Positions 45,100 through 64,000 are shown, counted from the first letter of the stretch. The stretch is 64,000 nucleotides of DNA from an uncultured Pseudomonadales bacterium (GCA_964455555.1 CAYVXV010000001.1:31499-95498); one strand, 5' to 3'. Made by a program: numbers and translations. Notes: generated by a model from the letters alone, not told the origin.

Positions 45100-46425
45100 T
45101 TATTGAACCCTGACAACTTGGCAGGTAAAGCCGCCACCGGCGCCAAAGGACAAGAACATAACATAATCATCCGGTTCGATATTTTCAAGTTGCCGGCCAA
45201 AAGCAATCGGGATGGTAGTGGCCGGCGCATTTCCTTCGCTGATCACCCACTGGATTTGATCGTTGGAGAAACCTAGACCCGGCCTTCTAGCCCCCCTTCC
45301 AACAAGTTTGTGCCTTAGATGATTGAAAATAGTTTTGCTGGGATGGTGTACAACAACCCGCTTGATTTTTTGGGCAGCCTGTTCAAGTGAAATTGTTTCG
45401 CCTTCAATTTCCTCCAGTTCATAGCGGAAATCCTCCAAAACTTCCTGGGCTAACTGAGCCGCATTATCCCTAAAATAAAATGCCGTCGCCTCCGGATCCA
45501 TTTGAACCAGCTGCCCGCCGGTTGTCGGTGCCATAAAGGGCGATTTCTTGGCATCATCCACCTGATCTCTTGGCCAAAAATCAGTGGTGTCTAAATACCG
45601 CAGACAAGAAGCGCCCTCCTGAACCGATTTTTGCCTGCCGGCAACTTTGACAAAAGTCGAAAGCTCGGGGTTGTCCGGATGATAAAAAAATGTCCATGCC
45701 GCAGCTCCGGAAGAAAACAATTGCCCTGAATTGGTGTCACCGCCAAGATGGCTCAAGCGTAAACCATCCTCATAGGCAAAAATGGTTACAACCACTGGCT
45801 CTCTCCTGTCCAACTGAGGGCAGTTTTCCCGCAAAACCTGATCGTACTCACCACTGAGGAGGGCATAAAAAAGGGCTCCTGCTGAATCACATGCCCTTAA
45901 TCGGTAATCCACCAGCTCAGGGTTCACAACACCCACTGCCCTGCCAATCCGTAGGTGAAAGTCCGGGGCATGGTTTGGCGGCACGCTGGTTGCCACCAAC
46001 AGCAAATCAGACTTCTCTAGGCCAAACGGCTGCAATGATTCCTGGCACAGCTCCTTCGCCACTAAGGTTGTTGCCATTAGGTAAGACTCTTCCGGCAACC
46101 CAGAGGTAATCTGATAAATTTTGTTAAAACCGGAGGTCGGCGTAATGTCTATTATGTTTTCCCGGCCGCTTAACTCAACTGTCCGGGCGAATATTTGGCT
46201 GCCCTGATATTTTTCGCCATAAAAGGCCAAAGAAACGCTGGAGCCGATTTTTTCATTGAGGTGACCTTCTTGGTCATACTCCCAGCCCCCGACCACAGCA
46301 GCCAATGCTTCCAGGCTGTCGGCTAGATGTGAAATTGCTTCCGGGGCAACCTTAGAACGGCGTGCTTTTTCAATTTCAGCAGAAAGATTGTAGAGTTGAG
46401 GAAATTCGCTAGAAAAGTTGGGCAT
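45100..46425 (-). CDS. Thiolase-fold condensing enzyme, divergent FabH (KAS III)-like, with N-terminal extension
   Basis: 441 aa. RACDSAGALFYALLSG aligns with FabH active-site AACAGFTYAL (Cys retained), HHPSKTIFNH sits where FabH has HQAN, and C-terminal FLSFGAGGGFTCQVVRV aligns with FabH LLEAFGGGFTWGSALVRF. The N-terminal ~100 aa are extra. Confidence 0.5.
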   Translation of the reverse strand: MPNFSSEFPQLYNLSAEIEKARRSKVAPEAISHLADSLEALAAVVGGWEYDQEGHLNEKIGSSVSLAFYGEKYQGSQIFARTVELSGRENIIDITPTSGFNKIYQITSGLPEESYLMATTLVAKELCQESLQPFGLEKSDLLLVATSVPPNHAPDFHLRIGRAVGVVNPELVDYRLRACDSAGALFYALLSGEYDQVLRENCPQLDRREPVVVTIFAYEDGLRLSHLGGDTNSGQLFSSGAAAWTFFYHPDNPELSTFVKVAGRQKSVQEGASCLRYLDTTDFWPRDQVDDAKKSPFMAPTTGGQLVQMDPEATAFYFRDNAAQLAQEVLEDFRYELEEIEGETISLEQAAQKIKRVVVHHPSKTIFNHLRHKLVGRGARRPGLGFSNDQIQWVISEGNAPATTIPIAFGRQLENIEPDDYVMFLSFGAGGGFTCQVVRVQ

Positions 46426-46488
46426 ATTTTCAGCTTTTGTCTTTTAAACCAAGCTTAATTCTATGCCACAACCGCTTTTTCAGCAATT

Positions 46489-47130
46489 CTAGTTTGTGAC
46501 TTCAGTCACACGCCGAATGTTGCCGGCTTCGTCCCAATTTATTTGATTCTTTGAGAGCCTGCTATAGCCGAATCCGGTTGTTTCGATCATTCTAATTAAA
46601 GACAAAGTAAAATTACTTAATCCCCTGTTGTTTGCAGACAATTTTGCCAGCATAAGCACTGTAAGCCGGCTCACAGCCTCCCTTGAGTATGAATAAGGCA
46701 AATCCAGCTGCCTGCAGAGATACCTGGAAAGCTGCCAACAAAACTTTTCCTCCTGCCTGAAATCGCTCAGGTACTCATCATTGGTCCTGCCCATCGAAGA
46801 AAGGAGTTTATGAGCACATTCGTGAAAAAGTATGGAAAAATAATCTGCCGCAGATGAATAATAGCCGACCTTAATCCTCTTCCCAGATCCCCAATGATCC
46901 GATCGCTCTGCACCTAATATCGACTCAGTGAGCAGATCTTGGAGGTCGTGACTGCCGTTTATGGCAAAAAAGCTGTTGACCCGGTAGGCTAGCCGGTCTT
47001 TTTCCTCTTCATCCATCGCTGCCACGCGCTCGAGGGCTAAAGCCCTTAAATCGCCTTCGGTGGGCACATCATTAGACCGTGGTTTATCCGGAGCAAATGA
47101 AAGTAACTCTCCTTTGTTTATGTTCTGCAT
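46489..47130 (-). CDS. Hypothetical protein with HExxH zincin-like motif
   Basis: 213 aa. FHECAHKLL could be a zinc-metallopeptidase HExxH. Otherwise no family recognised. Confidence 0.4.
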   Translation of the reverse strand: MQNINKGELLSFAPDKPRSNDVPTEGDLRALALERVAAMDEEEKDRLAYRVNSFFAINGSHDLQDLLTESILGAERSDHWGSGKRIKVGYYSSAADYFSILFHECAHKLLSSMGRTNDEYLSDFRQEEKFCWQLSRYLCRQLDLPYSYSREAVSRLTVLMLAKLSANNRGLSNFTLSLIRMIETTGFGYSRLSKNQINWDEAGNIRRVTEVTN

Positions 47131-47180
47131 AGCACATTATTTTCCAAAAATAGCTGACTTAACTACTTTCTGGTAAATTA

Positions 47181-47963
47181 CTAAGAGGTGGCTCGGGTAA
47201 AGCACATTTTCCGTGCATCCAAGGGCAGGTTTAGCTGCGCAGCCAGCGCTTGCATGATTTCCGTTAAATAAAAGTTGGGCCTGACAATTTTTCCGTTATT
47301 GAATTCCGGCATCCAATCCAGCAGTTCAGCCACTGACATCTGGGTGGTATCTATGCCAGCCATATCATAAACTAGCTTAAGATAGCTGTAATGAAACCAC
47401 TTCTCAACTTTTTTTCTTAAAGCAATGTTTTCCTGGTCGGATAAGTCCGGGTCAGGAAAAACGTCCGGCATATAGGGAAGAATGTGGGGATGAAAAACCT
47501 CATCATTAAGCAGACGGATAGCCCTAACCTGATCACACATTCTCTTGCCGCGGTATGAGCGGACCAACAAGCCAGCATACGGCCCTTCTATTACCAAGCC
47601 TACTTTATCTCCCGGACTGTGTTTAACTAAAACTGCATCGCAGGTGTCGCCAAAATCCTGAAACTCAACAGCATGCGGGTGTTTTGGAGCCATCAGCGGT
47701 ACATCCGGGATAATTTCAACCGGATATCTAACCTCAACAGGCAGTGCAGCTCCGCTAGTCTTGTAAATTTCTTGAAGTTCTTCTGATCTCAGTTTTAAAA
47801 ATAGAGCTCCGGTAATATTATTCACTGATGCTTCGCAGATTTCTCCTGTTTCAGCAGTTAAATCTGGAACCAGTCGTGATAAGGCCTGAAGCTCCTGTGT
47901 CAACGGACGGGAAAGAGTCCTCTCTTGAAAATATGACGGTAGCCGCTCACTTCTAAAGCTCAT
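47181..47963 (-). CDS. Hypothetical protein
   Basis: 260 aa ORF co-oriented with the HExxH gene. No motif recognised. Confidence 0.4.
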   Translation of the reverse strand: MSFRSERLPSYFQERTLSRPLTQELQALSRLVPDLTAETGEICEASVNNITGALFLKLRSEELQEIYKTSGAALPVEVRYPVEIIPDVPLMAPKHPHAVEFQDFGDTCDAVLVKHSPGDKVGLVIEGPYAGLLVRSYRGKRMCDQVRAIRLLNDEVFHPHILPYMPDVFPDPDLSDQENIALRKKVEKWFHYSYLKLVYDMAGIDTTQMSVAELLDWMPEFNNGKIVRPNFYLTEIMQALAAQLNLPLDARKMCFTRATS

Positions 47964-48071
47964 AATAACGTATTATACCCGAATAATTTCCTTGGGGAGA
48001 ATTAAATTTTTCTTCTGGCCTCTTCACTTGTCAAAAACACTATAACTTTAGGCTGAAATAAATAATTATAT

Positions 48072-48464
48072 GTGTTATTATGTGGCATCATGACAAATTC
48101 CCTAGAAAACGCAGTACGAATGAGCCCCTCTCATCCAGAATATAAAAAAGTTGATTATCTCCTTGCACTATTGGCAGCGATAATCAATCCGGAAGCACAT
48201 TTTAATTTCAATAAGATTTCAGAGAAAGTTAAAGAACTTCCTAAACCCGAGAGATCACTGGAAGAAGAAAGACGGCAGAACTTCATCCTGGCAACCAAAA
48301 GGGAGCTGCAAAAAATTTTTGATGAGATTCAGGCAACTCCTCCTATCTGGTTTGAATGTATCAGAGATTTTGAGATGGATGACATGAATGAGTCAGCCGA
48401 TATAGAGCTGCTGAACGAAATTTTCGACGAAGCTGCTGAAAATCCTGATAATTACGTTAATTAA
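48072..48464 (+). CDS. Hypothetical acidic protein
   Basis: 130 aa with an acidic C-terminal half. No motif. Confidence 0.35.
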   Translation: MLLCGIMTNSLENAVRMSPSHPEYKKVDYLLALLAAIINPEAHFNFNKISEKVKELPKPERSLEEERRQNFILATKRELQKIFDEIQATPPIWFECIRDFEMDDMNESADIELLNEIFDEAAENPDNYVN

Positions 48465-48465
48465 A

Positions 48466-48858
48466 CTATCTTACAACTTCGTAAGTCAGGCCTCCCCTGA
48501 CTCCAACTTCTGCATATCCAACATTAATAAATAGGTTGAGCACTCTCGATCCTTTCACATCATCGTGAAACATCACAACAGAATTCAGCCTAGTGCCATT
48601 AACATAGCCATTAATCCACTTCCGCTCCGAAAACTCGACATTTCTGTTTTCCGCTGCTGGGGGAAACAACTGCTTAACACTGCCTATTTCTAAAATTGCA
48701 TCCGGTCCGTTTTCCTCATAAAGCCTTAGCTCATAGTTTGAGATGGTGCCGGAATAATTCCAGACATCGTTTCCATGGACTAGTGATTTTGGAATCTGAT
48801 GGTTGTCCAAAGACCATCCAATGGCAGCAGCAATCCTCTGCTTCTCTTGAGAAGTCAT
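48466..48858 (-). CDS. Hypothetical protein
   Basis: 130 aa, convergent with the previous ORF and ending 2 nt from its stop. No motif. Confidence 0.35.
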   Translation of the reverse strand: MTSQEKQRIAAAIGWSLDNHQIPKSLVHGNDVWNYSGTISNYELRLYEENGPDAILEIGSVKQLFPPAAENRNVEFSERKWINGYVNGTRLNSVVMFHDDVKGSRVLNLFINVGYAEVGVRGGLTYEVVR

Positions 48859-48926
48859 GCAAATATTATATCATCGTGAGGAATGCGCTTGGTTTGGAGT
48901 ATGCTGGATGAAATGTGGGAAATTTG

Positions 48927-48999
48927 CAGGGCCGGAGGGATTCGAACCCCCACGAGAGGTTTTGGAGACCCCCATGCTAGCCATTAACATCACGGCCCT
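48927..48999 (-). tRNA. tRNA-Trp (anticodon CCA)
   Basis: Minus-strand read gives AGGGCCG-UG-AUGUUAAUGGCUAGCAU-G-GGGGU-CUCCAAA-ACCUC-UCGUG-GGGGG-UUCGAAU-CCCUC-CGGCCCU-g. A 7-bp acceptor pairs perfectly, T-loop TTCGAAT, anticodon loop CU-CCA-AA. CCA end not encoded. Confidence 0.85.
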
Positions 49000-49062
49000 A
49001 GGATTAATATTGTAACATGCTGCCACTAGACCTGGCTTCTTGTGTTGCGCTATTCTTAATGC

Positions 49063-50379
49063 ATGTCCAACCTCTTCGACCCCCATTTAACAAAAACTTA
49101 CCAGCAGGACAAGAAATTCCTCGAGCTTTCAAAAATTCCCATCGTCACCGTCTCTTCCAGTTATCAGGAAGACCTCAAGCGGATGCATGGCCTGCCCAAC
49201 AATGAAACTGACCGCGACGTGGTTTTTTCCCGCGCCCACTACTCGATGGCGCTGGGTGTAGCAACCTATGCCTGGAAGGAAAAAGTTGACCCCCAAAAAG
49301 CCTGGGTAGTCGACCCCACCAACTATGTTTCCAAAGATAAATGGTTTTCCATTCAATTAACAGAAATTATCGGTAAAACCATTGCCCGCAACTCTATACT
49401 GAAAACAGCCAAGGATTTTATAGACCGGTTTGCCCGAAAAAAGCTACCGATTTTGGACAGTATCACACCACCGCTGCTTTACCTGACTGAACATATTAAA
49501 AAACCTATCCTCTCTTTTCATATTGCTGCCGGAAATATCCTGGCTGGACAAGGAAAAACAGTTGTTCAGGTGGTGACTGATCCGCATGTCCGCGCTGAAT
49601 ATGTAACATATGCTGACAAAAAAAATATTAGTTTTTGTGTTTTTGATGAAGCCACCAAAGTGGATTTTCTGGAACAGGCGGCTAAACTGGATATCAAAGC
49701 CGATCCAGACCGGGTGATCGTGACCGGCCCGCCAATTGACCCAAGGATTATCGCTGCAAAAAATGAGAAAAACCCCTGGAGAAGCGGCATCCTGCGGCTT
49801 TGCATCACTACCGGAGGCCTAGGAACGAACAAGGAAGAAATTCTGAAGATGCTCAGGCAATTTCTACCTGAATTGCGCAAGCGCTCGCTGGAATACCAGC
49901 TGCTGGTCTACGCCGGCACCCAGCATGATATTGCCGATGAAGTTGAAAAACTGGCTCAGGAAAACAGGATTGCAATTGGCGGTCTTAATGATAAAAAAGC
50001 CAAGCTCAGGCTGATTTACCATCCTCAAATTGTTGATGCCAATGAAATGCTGATTAAGCATGGTTTCCCTTGGGCTCACGGTTTTATAACCAAACCATCA
50101 GGAGATATGGCTTATGACGCAGCCGCATCGGGCAGCTTCATCCTCACCATGGCAGAATGGGGTGAATGGGAGGAACGGATTCGGGTTATTTTTGAGCAGA
50201 AGAATATAGGCCGTACTGCCGACACCAACTCGATTATTTCTCAGCTGGAAGTCCTCCGCTCGGCTCAAAGAAAGTCGCAATCCTGGATTGAGCAAGCCAT
50301 GCACAATGCCCAAAAACTCGAGCCGCTCTATCTGAATGGGGCTAAAGGCATTTTAAATGCCGTTAAACAAGCCGGCTAA
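49063..50379 (+). CDS. Hypothetical protein, possible GT-B fold glycosyltransferase (MurG/MGDG-synthase-like)
   Basis: 438 aa. LRLCITTGGLGTNKEEI resembles the C-terminal-domain G-rich loop of GT28-type transferases (VTGGSxGA). Weak, overall-pattern call. Confidence 0.4.
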   Translation: MSNLFDPHLTKTYQQDKKFLELSKIPIVTVSSSYQEDLKRMHGLPNNETDRDVVFSRAHYSMALGVATYAWKEKVDPQKAWVVDPTNYVSKDKWFSIQLTEIIGKTIARNSILKTAKDFIDRFARKKLPILDSITPPLLYLTEHIKKPILSFHIAAGNILAGQGKTVVQVVTDPHVRAEYVTYADKKNISFCVFDEATKVDFLEQAAKLDIKADPDRVIVTGPPIDPRIIAAKNEKNPWRSGILRLCITTGGLGTNKEEILKMLRQFLPELRKRSLEYQLLVYAGTQHDIADEVEKLAQENRIAIGGLNDKKAKLRLIYHPQIVDANEMLIKHGFPWAHGFITKPSGDMAYDAAASGSFILTMAEWGEWEERIRVIFEQKNIGRTADTNSIISQLEVLRSAQRKSQSWIEQAMHNAQKLEPLYLNGAKGILNAVKQAG

Positions 50380-52599: not shown

Positions 52600-54189
52600 A
52601 TGAAACCTGCTCTAAAGCGTGTAGTTTTTAGCGTCCCCAATTTACTGCCTTTTGCCGGCCTATTACTAGTCATTTCCGGAGTGATTGGTATCTTTTACAC
52701 TCAGGAAGCCCTTCAGGAATCTCAAGAAATCCGGTCAAGCGCTTCCGGCGAAAGCGGCCAGGTTTTAATTGCTCCCCTCACCTCTCCAAGCACGACTATC
52801 AAAGGCTTAGTCCAAGAGCAGGTGATTTCTTTAGGAATTAACACTCAAAATCTGCCGCTTAAAGAATTTTCGGTGGTATTTAATGCCATTACTGATGTTG
52901 CAGACACGCTTGAGTTAGTGCCAAGCAACCTAGTTGGTTTTGAAGTTACCGCAGAAACACAAAAAACAGCCGACGGCTTCCTGGCTACCGCCGTTTTTAC
53001 CAGGACCAGCCAGAATTTCCTATCCAACTACAACCAAAAATTTTTGGAAATTCATTTTGAACCTGCTAAAGCCGGAACAATCGAACTTAATTTTGACCGC
53101 GAGCTTTCCGTAGCGCTTCACGCTGACAACAGCTCTGATATTCTTAAACACATTGCCGATGCTACTTTTACCATCGCCGCCAGTGAAGCTGACCCCACTT
53201 ACAAAGCCTGCAACGAAACCTGCAGCTCCAACGCCGAATGCCAATCTGGTTTCCGCTGCTTTAATACCGGCAGTGAATCGCGCTGCCGCCTGGTAACCAA
53301 CCCATCGAGCTCCACCTGCAGCTCAGAAAGCACTTTAAAATCCTGCAATCAAAGCTGCGGCGGCAGCGCTGAATGCCAAAGTGGCCTGAGCTGCATTAAC
53401 AGCATCTGCAGAAACCCGAATAATCCCGAAAGCTCCAGCTGCAGCAACCCAACTCAACAAGCAGAAACTCAAGCAGCCAGCTGCAATGAAGCCTGCACCA
53501 CCAATGCTGACTGCGCGGTAAATTTCCGCTGCTACTACAATCAATGCCGGCTGGCTACCAATCCTTCAAGTACCAGCTGCAGTGCAGATACGACTTCCAC
53601 TGTGTCTTCGCTCTACCAAAAGGAACCAGTAGAAACCGCTACACCATCTGCCCTGCCAACCTCACCGGCTCCTGAAACCAGCACAGAAAATGAAGAAACC
53701 CCAGAAGAATTTCAGCCAGAGGAGTCAGAACCAGTGACCCAACCCCAGGAACAACCTTTGGATCCGGATGAAACTTCACTTCAAGCCCTGCTGAGCGTCC
53801 TCGGCAGCTCAACTTTCCGCCTGCCCAGCACAGTCTTGGTTGCTGGAGCCATCTTGCTGCTTGTCGGCGGAGCAGTCTTTGTTGCCGCCTCCTCCAGAAA
53901 GAAACCGACCACTGTAGCTATGACAAAAACCGGCGTACCGCCTGCTCCACCTCCCAGAGAAACACCGCCTCCTTATGGGGCACCTCCTCAACCTCCGTCG
54001 CCGCAAACAGCACCTCCGCTAGCACCACCTTCGCAGTCAGCGCCTCCACAAGCAGCACCGCCGCAACCCGTACCTCCGCCTAACCAATCAGTTCCAATGG
54101 CTGAACGGTCATCTTCGATGGTTGAACGGCTCAAACAAAAAGGGATTACGCCGCCAAGCACAGGCAATCAGCAGCCAAAAGACCAATAG
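52600..54189 (+). CDS. Membrane-anchored protein with three tandem Cys-rich modules, Ser/Thr/Pro linker, C-terminal TM helix and Pro-rich tail (contains PPPY)
   Basis: 529 aa. N-terminal signal/anchor (VVFSVPNLLPFAGLLLVISGVIGIF). Three ~40-aa repeats, each C-x3-C-x5-C-x5-C-x4-6-C-x9-11-C (CNETCSSNAECQSGFRCFNTGSESRC... / CNQSCGGSAECQSGLSCINSICRN... / CNEACTTNADCAVNFRCYYNQCRL...). TM LPSTVLVAGAILLLVGGAVFVAASS followed by RKK. Tail PPAPPPRETPPPYGAPPQPPSPQTAPPLAPP... Confidence 0.6.
   Translation: MKPALKRVVFSVPNLLPFAGLLLVISGVIGIFYTQEALQESQEIRSSASGESGQVLIAPLTSPSTTIKGLVQEQVISLGINTQNLPLKEFSVVFNAITDVADTLELVPSNLVGFEVTAETQKTADGFLATAVFTRTSQNFLSNYNQKFLEIHFEPAKAGTIELNFDRELSVALHADNSSDILKHIADATFTIAASEADPTYKACNETCSSNAECQSGFRCFNTGSESRCRLVTNPSSSTCSSESTLKSCNQSCGGSAECQSGLSCINSICRNPNNPESSSCSNPTQQAETQAASCNEACTTNADCAVNFRCYYNQCRLATNPSSTSCSADTTSTVSSLYQKEPVETATPSALPTSPAPETSTENEETPEEFQPEESEPVTQPQEQPLDPDETSLQALLSVLGSSTFRLPSTVLVAGAILLLVGGAVFVAASSRKKPTTVAMTKTGVPPAPPPRETPPPYGAPPQPPSPQTAPPLAPPSQSAPPQAAPPQPVPPPNQSVPMAERSSSMVERLKQKGITPPSTGNQQPKDQ
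53206..53570 (+). repeat. Intragenic tandem repeat: three ~120-nt units encoding Cys-rich modules
   Basis: Recurring tgcagctc / gaatgccaa / agctgc words in DNA. The protein-level 6-Cys spacing is conserved across three consecutive units. Confidence 0.5.
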
Positions 54190-60281: not shown

Positions 60282-60336
60282 TCCCCCGCCACTTGGCGAC
60301 AGGCTTTTTAACTCAGCAAACTATTGCTAGAACATG

Positions 60337-60365
60337 AAACCCCCCGCTTGCGGGGGGTTTTTGTT
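60337..60365 (+). terminator. Rho-independent terminator after rplL
   Basis: AAACCCCCCGC-TTGC-GGGGGGTTTTTG, about 55 nt after the rplL stop. Confidence 0.7.
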
Positions 60366-60825: not shown

Positions 60826-61140
60826 ATGTCTGACACAACTGCCATGACATCACCGGTAACCAACCAGTCGCTTGCTGACCAGCAGCGAGCAGCTTTAGCA
60901 GAAGACCAAAAGAGGACTGGACGGGCTGATGATGCTAACAGACTCGATATCAACAACCTTCCTGACCTGCTGACCGTCAGGGAAGTAGCTGACCTTCTCA
61001 GAGTCTCACCCCTGACCATCAAACGCTGGGGCAAACGAGGCAAGCTGCCTGCCATCAGGATCAATTCCCGAGGAGACAGGCGCTACAAGAAGGAATCCGT
61101 ACTCTGGCTGCTGGGCATTACGCCTGGGGATGACGAGTAA
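60826..61140 (+). CDS. Excisionase/MerR-type helix-turn-helix DNA-binding protein (HTH_17-like)
   Basis: 104 aa. LTVREVADLLRVSPLTIKRWGKRGKLPAIRINSRGDRRYKKESVLWL fits the excisionase-family HTH pattern (L-T-x-x-E-x-A-x-x-L-x-V-S-x-x-T-x-x-R-W...G-x-x-R-Y). Confidence 0.55.
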   Translation: MSDTTAMTSPVTNQSLADQQRAALAEDQKRTGRADDANRLDINNLPDLLTVREVADLLRVSPLTIKRWGKRGKLPAIRINSRGDRRYKKESVLWLLGITPGDDE

Positions 61141-61159
61141 GTTTCTTTAATTAAAACAG

Positions 61160-61188
61160 AAACCGCCCCTGAAACGGGGCGGTTTTTT
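61160..61188. terminator. Bidirectional terminator between the HTH gene (+) and the WecB/TagA gene (-)
   Basis: AAACCGCCCC-TGAAA-CGGGGCGGTTTTTT. Confidence 0.65.
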
Positions 61189-61200
61189 ATTTTTATAACT

Positions 61201-62034
61201 TCAGAGTTTAAATAATTCTTTTAATGTCAGCCAGCTAAACTTGACTAATTTTAACTGCCTTCTCCACCGCCAGGGTTCCTGCAGCAAACGGTACAGCCAT
61301 TCCAACCCTAACCGCCTGACAAATGCCGGCGCCCGGTTTAGTTTGCCAAAGAGCATATCAAAAGCGCCGCCTACGGCCATAACCACTAAAACTCCTTCTT
61401 TCTCGAGAAATGGTTTATTTTGGCAGATCCAATATTCCTGGTGCGGCGCGCCAAATGCAGCAAAAACAACCGCCGGCTTCAGCTGGCTGATTAAGCTATG
61501 AACTGCTTGCTGCTCGGCTTCTGCCGGCTGAGAAACTTGGCTAAAGCCAGGGGTCCAAACTATAGCTGCGTCCTTTCCGGCGGAAATCGGCAATTTTAGC
61601 TCGAACACCTCAATTTCTAGGTTGGGAAAGAGCCGGCGGCTTGCCGGCTGCAGTTTTTCATAGCCCCGGCCGCCCAAAATTAAGACGCTGCGATCATGCT
61701 GGTTGGCAATTTTCAAAATTTCAGCAGCTAAATCAACGCCAGCGATCCTCTTTTTTAGCGGTTTTGAGCCTTTTAAAGCGAGCAAACGGGAGGCAAAAAC
61801 CAGTCCAACACCGTCGGGAGCCAAAATATCGGCAGAACCCAAACAGGAAGCAAAAGTTTGAAGCTCTGAAGCGAGCGCAATTTGTTCAGGGTTGGGGGTA
61901 AAAATGGTCAGCGGAGTCCTTTTTTCAGAGGTGGAAGCTGATATTTGTTTCTCTATAATTTTTAGCAGAGCATTGCGTTGACTGCCAAAAATGCCTAGAT
62001 TGAATATTTTAGCCGATTTATAGGTATTTTTCAT
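61201..62034 (-). CDS. WecB/TagA/CpsF-family glycosyltransferase (N-acetylmannosaminyl/ManNAcA transferase family)
   Basis: 277 aa. ILAPDGVGLVFASRLL contains the family PDG(V/I)G motif. Length and layout are typical of TagA-like enzymes. Confidence 0.75.
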   Translation of the reverse strand: MKNTYKSAKIFNLGIFGSQRNALLKIIEKQISASTSEKRTPLTIFTPNPEQIALASELQTFASCLGSADILAPDGVGLVFASRLLALKGSKPLKKRIAGVDLAAEILKIANQHDRSVLILGGRGYEKLQPASRRLFPNLEIEVFELKLPISAGKDAAIVWTPGFSQVSQPAEAEQQAVHSLISQLKPAVVFAAFGAPHQEYWICQNKPFLEKEGVLVVMAVGGAFDMLFGKLNRAPAFVRRLGLEWLYRLLQEPWRWRRQLKLVKFSWLTLKELFKL

Positions 62035-62549
62035 GGTACCTTACCAAAAAACATTTTTTTATTAGTTTAATCAATTACCCAAAAGAAATCGTCGTTTTAT
62101 TCTGGTTTACAAGTTTCTTGCAAGTCTCACATGCTATTATGACACCTTCAAAGCTAAGTTGCCAATTTAGCTGCTCTCGCACGCCCCTCCGATTCGGTCT
62201 ATTTATGCTGAACTTAGGCTCTACCGTCCCTTGGGCAAAGAGAAGGCGAACATTGGCGCAGTTTGATGAACTGTTTTTTTCGCTTCCTGCCTCCAAATCA
62301 AAGTGAAATCTTTCACTTTTTTCAACATATTGAACACAGTTTTTTAAGGCATTTTACTCAAAATTTATCAATTCTTTATTCTTTCCGTTTCAAAATGTAC
62401 TCAGTCCCAAATTCCGCCTAATTTCTAACTATATCAGCGTGTCAAAAAGCGGCTTTTCCTGCAGTTTTGGAGCAGGAAAAATCAGCAATCTCCGGCTTAC
62501 GAAAACTGCGGTAAGATGCATATTGCGGGAGGATACATTATAATGATTT

Positions 62550-63983
62550 TTGATGCCTAATTTACGAGACCTAAGGGAACAGCACCCCCGTTTTTACTAC
62601 CGAGATTACTCCTGGGAACTCGAGCCTGAAGGTTTAAAATTATCCTTTCACTTCGAGCTGGAACCGGGCATTCATTTCCGGCCTACCATGACCATTCTAG
62701 GCGTAAGCCAGGATGTCATGGCCAGGCTTAACCCTAAAGAGATTGATCTGGCTGCATTTAACATTGGTATGGCTGAGCTTTTCAGCTACTGGAAAACTGC
62801 TGCTTCCCCGGAGATTATTATTGAAGCTGCTCCCCTCAGCAGCGAGCAGCTTGCCTGGTGGCACGACCTTTTAATCCAAGGCATGGGTGAGTATTTCTTT
62901 GTTAACCGGATTGACTTTACTGACCCCGGCTTTGTTAAATTTGTCAGCGCTTCAACAAAAGACCCGGCTGGCCAACCGCAAAACAGCCAGAGATCTACCC
63001 CAAGCCAGAATGTCCTTATACCCCTTGGAGGCGGCAAGGACTCAGTCACCACCCTAGAGCTTTATAGGGAAATAGCTGACGAGGGACGCAAACTGGCTTG
63101 TTTTTTTGTTAACCCAACCCAGGCTGCCAGGGATATAGCCAGGGAAAGCGGCGTCCAAGCAATCGAAGCCTCCAGAACACTAGACCTGAAAATGCTTGAG
63201 CTTAATAGTCAGGGCTACCTCAACGGCCACGTACCCATTTCTGCCCTATTTGCTTTTACCAGCGTCTTGGCCGCCAGGTTGTTTGGCTTTGGTTTTATAG
63301 CGATTTCCAATGAGCGCAGCTCCAATGAGGGCAATGTCTGGTTTCACGACAGGGAAATTAATCACCAATATTCCAAAACCTTCGAGTTCGAACAAAAGTT
63401 CCAACAATACATCAGGGATTACTATCCGCCTGATTCGCCTCTGTACTTTTCATACCTGCGCCCAATCTATGAATTGCAAATAGCCGGCATTTTTGCCGAC
63501 TACAAGAGCTATCACCACGACTTTCGCAGCTGTAATGCCGGCCAAAAAACCAACAGCTGGTGCGGCCAATGCCCCAAATGCCTTTTTGCCTACACAATCC
63601 TTTACCCTTTTCTCGAGACAAAACACCTTGATGGCTTATTTGGCAAAAACCTCTTCTCGGATGAAAACCTGCTGCCCCTAGCCTTAGAACTGGCAGGTGC
63701 CGGTGAACAAAAGCCGCTCGAGTGTGTCGGCACTCATGAAGAAACCATTGCCGCCTTTCATTTGTCCTGGAAAAAACATCAGGCTGACCCCTCAACCCAG
63801 CCCGTGCTTCTCAAGTTGGTGTATGAAACGGTTTTGGCCAACGAGGCTGGCCTGGATGCCAGGGCAGCTGCCATTTTATCTGCCTGGAATGACCAACATA
63901 CCATCCCGGAAAAAACCTGGGAAGAAAAGCTGAGGGAAAAAATAGCCGGACTTGACCAGAAAATTATCAATGGTGGCATTTGA
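62550..63983 (+). CDS. PP-loop (adenine nucleotide alpha-hydrolase superfamily) ATPase-like protein with N-terminal unknown domain and C-terminal Cys cluster
   Basis: 477 aa. VLIPLGGGKDSVTT resembles the SGGxDS PP-loop at ~residue 158. C-terminal FRSCNAGQKTNSWCGQCPKC (C-x10-C-x2-C-x2-C) resembles QueC/TtcA-type zinc sites. Confidence 0.45.
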   Translation: MMPNLRDLREQHPRFYYRDYSWELEPEGLKLSFHFELEPGIHFRPTMTILGVSQDVMARLNPKEIDLAAFNIGMAELFSYWKTAASPEIIIEAAPLSSEQLAWWHDLLIQGMGEYFFVNRIDFTDPGFVKFVSASTKDPAGQPQNSQRSTPSQNVLIPLGGGKDSVTTLELYREIADEGRKLACFFVNPTQAARDIARESGVQAIEASRTLDLKMLELNSQGYLNGHVPISALFAFTSVLAARLFGFGFIAISNERSSNEGNVWFHDREINHQYSKTFEFEQKFQQYIRDYYPPDSPLYFSYLRPIYELQIAGIFADYKSYHHDFRSCNAGQKTNSWCGQCPKCLFAYTILYPFLETKHLDGLFGKNLFSDENLLPLALELAGAGEQKPLECVGTHEETIAAFHLSWKKHQADPSTQPVLLKLVYETVLANEAGLDARAAAILSAWNDQHTIPEKTWEEKLREKIAGLDQKIINGGI

Positions 63984-64000
63984 ACTATGAAATTTGAACT

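Follow-up and report, generated by a model that had tools for sequence, protein, structure and literature searches.

Introduction

The alternative pathway to D-Glu in peptidoglycan relies on the ligase MurD2 and the epimerase MurL. The conversion of a terminal L-Glu into D-Glu by MurL runs one way, consumes one ATP and yields AMP, as described for the enzymes of Xanthomonas, Micromonospora and Salinispora (PMC8788868, PMC5808125). According to reviews, MurL is active with ATP and Mg2+; they mention no further cofactor as required, and describe MurL as a protein without known domains (PMC8788868, PMC5808125). That MurL first adenylates the terminal L-Glu on its α-carboxylate, with inversion and then hydrolysis to follow, was already proposed in the published pathway work. 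The preference of MurD2 for L-Glu is due to residues E197 and R358, which stand where E. coli MurD has Asp182 and Lys348 (PMC8788868). The pathway was considered in a 2021 review to be confined to relatively few genera, and was promoted as a narrow-spectrum antibiotic target. The present analysis concerns a murL-like gene at the end of a stretch of 64,000 nucleotides, hereafter the window, from an uncultured bacterium labelled Pseudomonadales (GCA_964455555.1 CAYVXV010000001.1:31499-95498). This gene very probably encodes a MurL orthologue (UDP-N-acetylmuramoyl-L-alanyl-L-glutamate epimerase) and forms with the following gene a two-gene murL-murD2 unit in a Patescibacteria-type genome.

Identification of the murL gene

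The mechanically delimited open reading frame (ORF; 62550..63983, plus strand) opens with TTG-ATG. The TTG at 62550 gives the 477 amino acids (aa) of the original prediction, and the ATG at 62553 gives 476. The ORF is real: its 476-aa product is identical to a protein present in the NCBI and Logan assemblies (P0001). As homologs also begin at the ATG, the coding sequence was set to 62553..63983 (plus strand, 476 aa plus stop), and the 476-aa numbering is used hereafter.

The NCBIfam model NF041275 (MurL) matches the ORF with an E-value of 7.6e-68 over aa 78-459 (model positions 70-442 of 447). The model was built for Xanthomonadales, and by the NCBI rule the score of 229 bits marks the protein as a homolog but does not certify it as an equivalog. 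The Pfam domains PF26299 (MurL_N) and PF26298 (MurL_epimerase_C) are recorded, in precomputed form, for the identical protein, and some homologs with 47-55% identity are named UDP-N-acetylmuramoyl-L-alanyl-L-glutamate epimerase by the Joint Genome Institute (JGI). A Pfam scan with a copy of the database that holds neither MurL model returned nothing above threshold, and only DUF6395 below it. Searching the PDB with the sequence of the murL product returned only chance matches to retropepsins through 'GGGK', which indicates that no relative of MurL detectable by sequence has a solved structure. Since curated Pfam and NCBIfam models exist and some JGI annotations already carry the name, the ORF belongs to a known, characterised family. 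It is a housekeeping gene, formerly a 'hypothetical protein'.

The downstream ligase

The window ends 17 nt past the murL stop codon and includes the first 14 nt (63987..64000, plus strand) of a murD2-like ligase gene, which starts 3 nt after the murL TGA in the same frame and continues past the window end to encode 476 aa. The ligase gene was revealed by the Logan contig L001, which reproduces window positions 62016-64000 at 100% identity (1,985 nt). Both genes are also found on the same 226-kb NCBI contig.

The ligase belongs to the MurD family: it passes the TIGR01087 murD model (341.6 bits, cutoff 212), and it matches solved MurD structures with E-values of 2e-65 to 1e-39. Its residues E204 and R373 align with D182 and K348 of E. 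coli MurD. As a control, solved D-Glu MurDs were found to have D/K or T/R at both positions, never E/R. The position of E. coli MurD K319, mutation of which loosens chirality, is occupied by L345. P433 and F435 of X. oryzae MurD2 are replaced by Ala and Tyr; mutating these two positions left specificity unchanged (PMC8788868).

All of the 120 closest ligase relatives (P0266-P0384) have Glu at the D182 position, in an E/R pair in 84 cases and an E/K pair in 36. Lys is absent from the K319 position in all 120, and the 36 E/K members carry Gln there. All named close relatives are annotated as D-glutamate ligases in public sources. Judging from the residue pairs, the specificity of these ligases may be systematically mis-annotated as D-Glu. 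With L-Glu-signature ligases called D-Glu ligases, metabolic reconstructions may be wrong at this step.

Gene pairing and fusions

One genome per species was scanned, which yielded at least 586 relatives of the MurL protein, and 80 loci were kept for neighbourhood counts. A MurD-like gene lies 3′ of murL on the same strand at 71 of these loci; in 56 cases it is no more than 400 nt away. The E/R pair is present in 61 of the 68 full-length ligases adjacent to murL. The ligase of locus L020 is of the canonical MurD type, with D/K, and those of Pseudobutyrivibrio and some others have D/R.

An exhaustive HMMER census gave 2,494 clusters (50% identity) at E≤1e-3, and 1,151 at E≤1e-30. Proteins of more than 780 aa make up 32 of the 150 best cluster representatives; these include 29 MurL-MurD-like fusions and one in the order MurD-like-MurL (P0149), with the E/R pair in 27 of the ligase halves. 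Other fusions are one MurB-MurL (P0222) and one of another Mur ligase with MurL (P0184). The MurL-MurD2 fusion proteins are 873-1070 aa long. One of them, P0123 (L085:1001-3868), is a single open frame on its DNA under the standard code; it is the only fusion confirmed on DNA, the others being predicted ones. At the P0123 locus, WecG lies upstream of the fusion gene, separated from it by an MGMT-like gene, and MreB follows downstream.

The murL TGA and the ligase ATG are in one frame, so that gene callers reading TGA as a sense codon would manufacture fusions. Translating the window junction (63981-63989) with code 4 or 25 would yield one such artefact, about 955 aa long. The shared frame affects how much trust fusions from public metagenome gene calls deserve.

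From the named homologs and the shared synteny, we infer that the host lineage is Patescibacteria, resembling Woesebacteria or Pacebacteria. Six metagenome-assembled genomes of the set (L004, L012, L017, L019, L028, L050) are labelled Vitreimonas sp., Pseudomonadales, Enterobacteriaceae, Actinomycetota or Proteobacteria. Their MurL sequences are close to those of Patescibacteria, and the taxonomic labels look doubtful.

Conserved residues and predicted fold of MurL

Conservation was assessed in 55 homologs (44-59% identity) and in a second set of 81 sequences from several phyla. The PP-loop motif LGGGKDS (63024..63044, plus strand; aa 158-164) stands about 160 residues into the chain as originally noted, at 159-165 of the 477-aa ORF. 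Residues G159-G-G-K-D163 are invariant in the 55 homologs, and G161 and D163 are kept in 81/81 of the second set. Position 159 is a Ser in 11 of the 81, giving the canonical SGGxDS, and the loop overall reads [GSA]-G-G-K-D-S.

The four cysteines of the predicted cluster are C327, C337, C340 and C343, within CNAGQKTNSWCGQCPKC (63531..63581, plus strand). They proved to be invariant in the 55 homologs and in 81/81 of the multi-phylum set. Their spacing is C-x9-C-x2-C-x2-C instead of the x10 first read, and the cluster is not C-terminal but about 70% of the way into the protein. A fifth cysteine, C391 (63723..63725, plus strand), belongs to the motif KPxECVGTHEE and is likewise invariant in both sets (81/81 in the second). 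Beside it, K387, P388, V392, G393 and E397 are invariant in the 55 homologs. The cysteine at 183/184 is not conserved among homologs. On these alignments, both the PP-loop motif and the cysteine cluster exceed chance.

An AlphaFold (AF2) model computed from the 55-sequence alignment has a predicted local distance difference test score (pLDDT) of 95 and a predicted template modelling score (pTM) of 0.93. It consists of three parts: an N-domain (aa 1-132), a Rossmann-like core and a helical C-terminal region. The N-domain, MurL_N (62553..62948, plus strand), is a β-meander followed by α/β elements. The core is a QueC-like PP-loop ATP pyrophosphatase domain (63000..63602, plus strand; about aa 150-350). 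The segment GGGKDS (aa 159-164) sits after the strand 154-157 and starts the helix 162-174, in the topology of a PP-loop. Among solved structures, QueC, Cap9, TilS, NcsA and TtuA come closest in fold. The fold and the loop thus uphold the PP-loop superfamily assignment of the original prediction, which the Pfam PP-loop profiles match below threshold only: QueC in 20 of the 55 members (best E-value 0.0035) and ATP_bind_3 in 1 of 55. The PADLOC QueC profile also matches under its threshold (E=6e-4). Aligning the family profile to E. coli QueC with hhalign places LGGGKDS on the QueC SGGQDS, with a probability of 6.8% and P=0.005, and the link to QueC is not established by this signal alone.

The resemblance of the cysteine cluster to QueC is borne out, as E. 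coli QueC has the near-identical motif C188-x8-C197-x2-C200-x2-C203 (CYNGFKGDGCGHCAAC). This shared motif indicates common ancestry and not membership in the QueC family. The window protein is not a single domain of about 220-230 aa, scores under the model threshold, and has Mur and housekeeping genes as neighbours. As with the corresponding motif of QueC, Cys4 probably binds a structural zinc. An Fe-S cluster, as in TtuA, NcsA and some LarE, was considered and rejected as less likely, since the cysteines are spaced as in QueC and ATP and Mg2+ are the only requirements that the reviews name for MurL activity. Weak matches to DUF6395 were found over the cysteine-cluster region (63504-63599, aa 318-349) in 53 of the 55 members (best E-value 7.9e-5, below the gathering threshold). 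They hint that the uncharacterised DUF6395 family shares a QueC-like cysteine module.

Proposed mechanism

The PP-loop fold is compatible with the published ATP-to-AMP stoichiometry. QueC adenylates the carboxylate of its substrate, and a QueC-like core therefore fits the proposal of α-carboxylate adenylation by MurL. In the scheme considered here, MurD2 would first attach L-Glu to the cell-wall precursor, and MurL would then invert it. The QueC-like domain would bind Mg-ATP at GGGKDS and adenylate the α-carboxylate of the terminal L-Glu, and this activation would acidify the Cα proton. Inversion could be performed by invariant residues such as C391, H226, H271 and K275, among which C391 is put forward by inference only as a candidate catalytic residue. 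Hydrolysis would finally release AMP and the D-product. MurL_N probably helps to hold the UDP-MurNAc-peptide.

Evaluation of the assignment and of its alternatives

Several points weigh against the assignment as MurL. The 229 bits obtained with NF041275 are below the equivalog cutoff of 700; such a score is expected for a distant phylum, and the same function has therefore been argued from other evidence, namely the context. The E/R signature is not fully diagnostic, given the 36 E/K pairs among the 120 closest ligase relatives. A few ligases adjacent to murL have D/R or D/K (L020, L055, L057, L070, L072, L078, L082). MurL activity is a prediction for this clade, its exact substrate is presumed, and the roles proposed for individual residues in adenylation, catalysis and zinc binding are putative. 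Finally, the E. coli query detected no MurI by tblastn in the window or at the 80 flanking loci; as the 64 kb covered are part of a contig of 226 kb or more, this result carries little weight for the genome as a whole. MurI activity is reportedly on record for at least one Patescibacterium, and work by Penalver et al. in 2024 is said to concern a Saccharibacteria MurI.

Some of these points would also fit a paralogue of the MurL family with a different substrate or outcome, which might epimerise, or activate in some other way, the last residue of another UDP-MurNAc-peptide (for instance one whose position 1 differs), or be served by a ligase that is not specific for L-Glu. The sub-cutoff score, the varying ligase signature of relatives (E/K, D/R, D/K) and the fusions to MurB and to a Mur ligase other than MurD can be read in this way. 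The ligase next to the window gene nevertheless has the full E/R pair and no Lys at the K319 position, and both adjacency and fusion overwhelmingly involve MurD-type ligases. The residues resembling an active site are kept in 81/81, which argues for a single chemistry. Such a paralogue is considered unlikely.

The pairing with the WecG/TagA-family gene had led the original prediction to an ATP-dependent amidation or thiolation of a sugar or nucleotide. An amidotransferase or thiolase acting on a sugar or nucleotide-sugar with that partner is very unlikely. The WecG/TagA gene neighbours murL at only 6 of the 80 loci, while the gene of a MurD-like ligase does so at 71, and the fusions are with Mur enzymes, never with WecG. 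Neither TIGR03573, the N-acetyl sugar amidotransferase model, nor Asn_synthase matches at E≤1, and no glutaminase or sulfur-relay partner is encoded nearby.

Least probable of all is an enzyme of tRNA modification or deazapurine synthesis with extra domains (a TtcA/TtuA/NcsA-type Fe-S thiolase, TilS, a true QueC or a Cap9-like protein): the nearest solved folds, the QueC-like cysteine motif and the weak QueC matches of 20/55 members and of PADLOC point that way, but all profile matches are sub-threshold (0.0035 for Pfam QueC, 6e-4 for PADLOC), the hhalign probability is 6.8%, TtcA and TilS do not match at E≤1, no queuosine, sulfur-transfer or cyclic oligonucleotide-based antiphage signalling system (CBASS) genes are nearby, the protein is twice the length of QueC with family-specific N- and C-terminal regions, and the reviews name only ATP and Mg2+ for MurL activity. 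Of the first interpretation, the PP-loop ATP enzyme stands; the sugar, nucleotide or tRNA role is very unlikely.

Genomic surroundings

Upstream of murL and divergent from it, at 61201..62034 on the minus strand, lies the gene of a WecG/TagA/CpsF-family glycosyltransferase. Its family was correctly recognised at the outset: PF03808 is matched with an E-value of 3e-43 and 148 bits (cutoff 27.4), and TIGR00696 with 124.5 bits (cutoff 69). The 6 loci that share this arrangement are all among the closest relatives, and the gene is a lineage-specific neighbour without demonstrable link to murL. The WecG-murL synteny is found in L004, L012 and L017.

The intergenic region (62035..62549) is exactly 515 bp long and AT-rich, as first described, with a GC content of 0.38 against 0.464 for the window. 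It contains one sigma-70-like site on the minus strand (62165..62136) and no excess of promoter-like sites. It has no Rfam match and no DNA or peptide conservation when compared with the 80 related loci. It is presumably an ordinary divergent promoter region.

The other genes around are housekeeping genes, including those of NusG, L1, threonyl-tRNA synthetase (ThrRS), L10, L7/L12 and GalU. Upstream of wecG, positions 60826-61140 (plus strand) encode a 104-aa helix-turn-helix (HTH) protein resembling MerR, excisionases and BldC (HTH_17, E=2.8e-10; BldC subfamily, E=7.7e-12, below cutoff). This order is kept in the closest relatives, the full series HTH-WecG-murL-murD2 being present in L004 and L012. 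In those loci the HTH protein has 69-89% aa identity, compared with 44-49% for MurL and 38-43% for WecG. The HTH gene converges with the 3′ end of wecG, and the two are separated by a GC-rich hairpin of 12 bp with T-runs on both sides (61158-61187) that resembles a bidirectional intrinsic terminator. Another strong hairpin, also terminator-like, follows rplL (60336-60361). Farther away, the regions 45100-50379 and 52600-54189 contain five ORFs (441, 213, 260, 438 and 529 aa) with no NCBIfam match at E≤1e-5.

Discussion

The 'hypothetical protein' of the window is resolved into a known cell-wall enzyme. Hosts of the MurL family include ultra-small Patescibacteria, gut Bacteroidales and Lachnospiraceae, in at least 586 species-level genomes. 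The alternative D-Glu pathway appears far more widespread than stated in the 2021 review, and this wide distribution matters for the selectivity that has been claimed for inhibitors of MurD2 and MurL. An open-access literature search found no description of the breadth of the family, of its QueC-like PP-loop nature or of the frequent fusions. As a tentative proposal, possible rather than probable, MurD2/MurL would be a major D-glutamate route across Patescibacteria and many Bacteroidales and Lachnospiraceae, with repeated MurL-MurD2 fusion, and MurL would be an adenylating PP-loop enzyme derived from QueC, with a Zn(Cys)4 site and C391 taking part in stereo-inversion. The QueC-like fold, the Cys4 motif and the invariant residues provide a testable structural basis for MurL.

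Comparison with known systems

The N-acetyl sugar amidotransferases (TIGR03573; PDB 8wex) are remote from the window protein, with no profile match at E≤1 and 39th rank among the structural matches. Its neighbourhood and the fusions of its family indicate Mur enzymes, not polysaccharide-modification genes.

QueC and the Cap9 protein of CBASS share the fold at 15-18% identity. MurL is far longer, as first remarked, about twice the length of QueC, and adds an N-domain of about 130 aa, a helical C-terminal region of about 125 aa and the fifth invariant cysteine, C391. Its context is that of peptidoglycan, not of queuosine or defence. Unlike QueC, the window MurL implies no ammonia or amine acceptor, since inversion would be followed by hydrolysis of the adenylate.

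The closest counterpart is the characterised MurL. Homology of the window protein to the Xanthomonadales profile extends along about 380 residues; the two Pfam domains are the same and the length is similar. Its host is of Patescibacteria type, absent from the taxa listed in PMC8788868 and PMC5808125. As with the characterised enzyme, it is paired with a MurD-like ligase bearing the published L-Glu residues, namely Glu and Arg at both positions reported as the L-Glu/D-Glu switch (PMC8788868).

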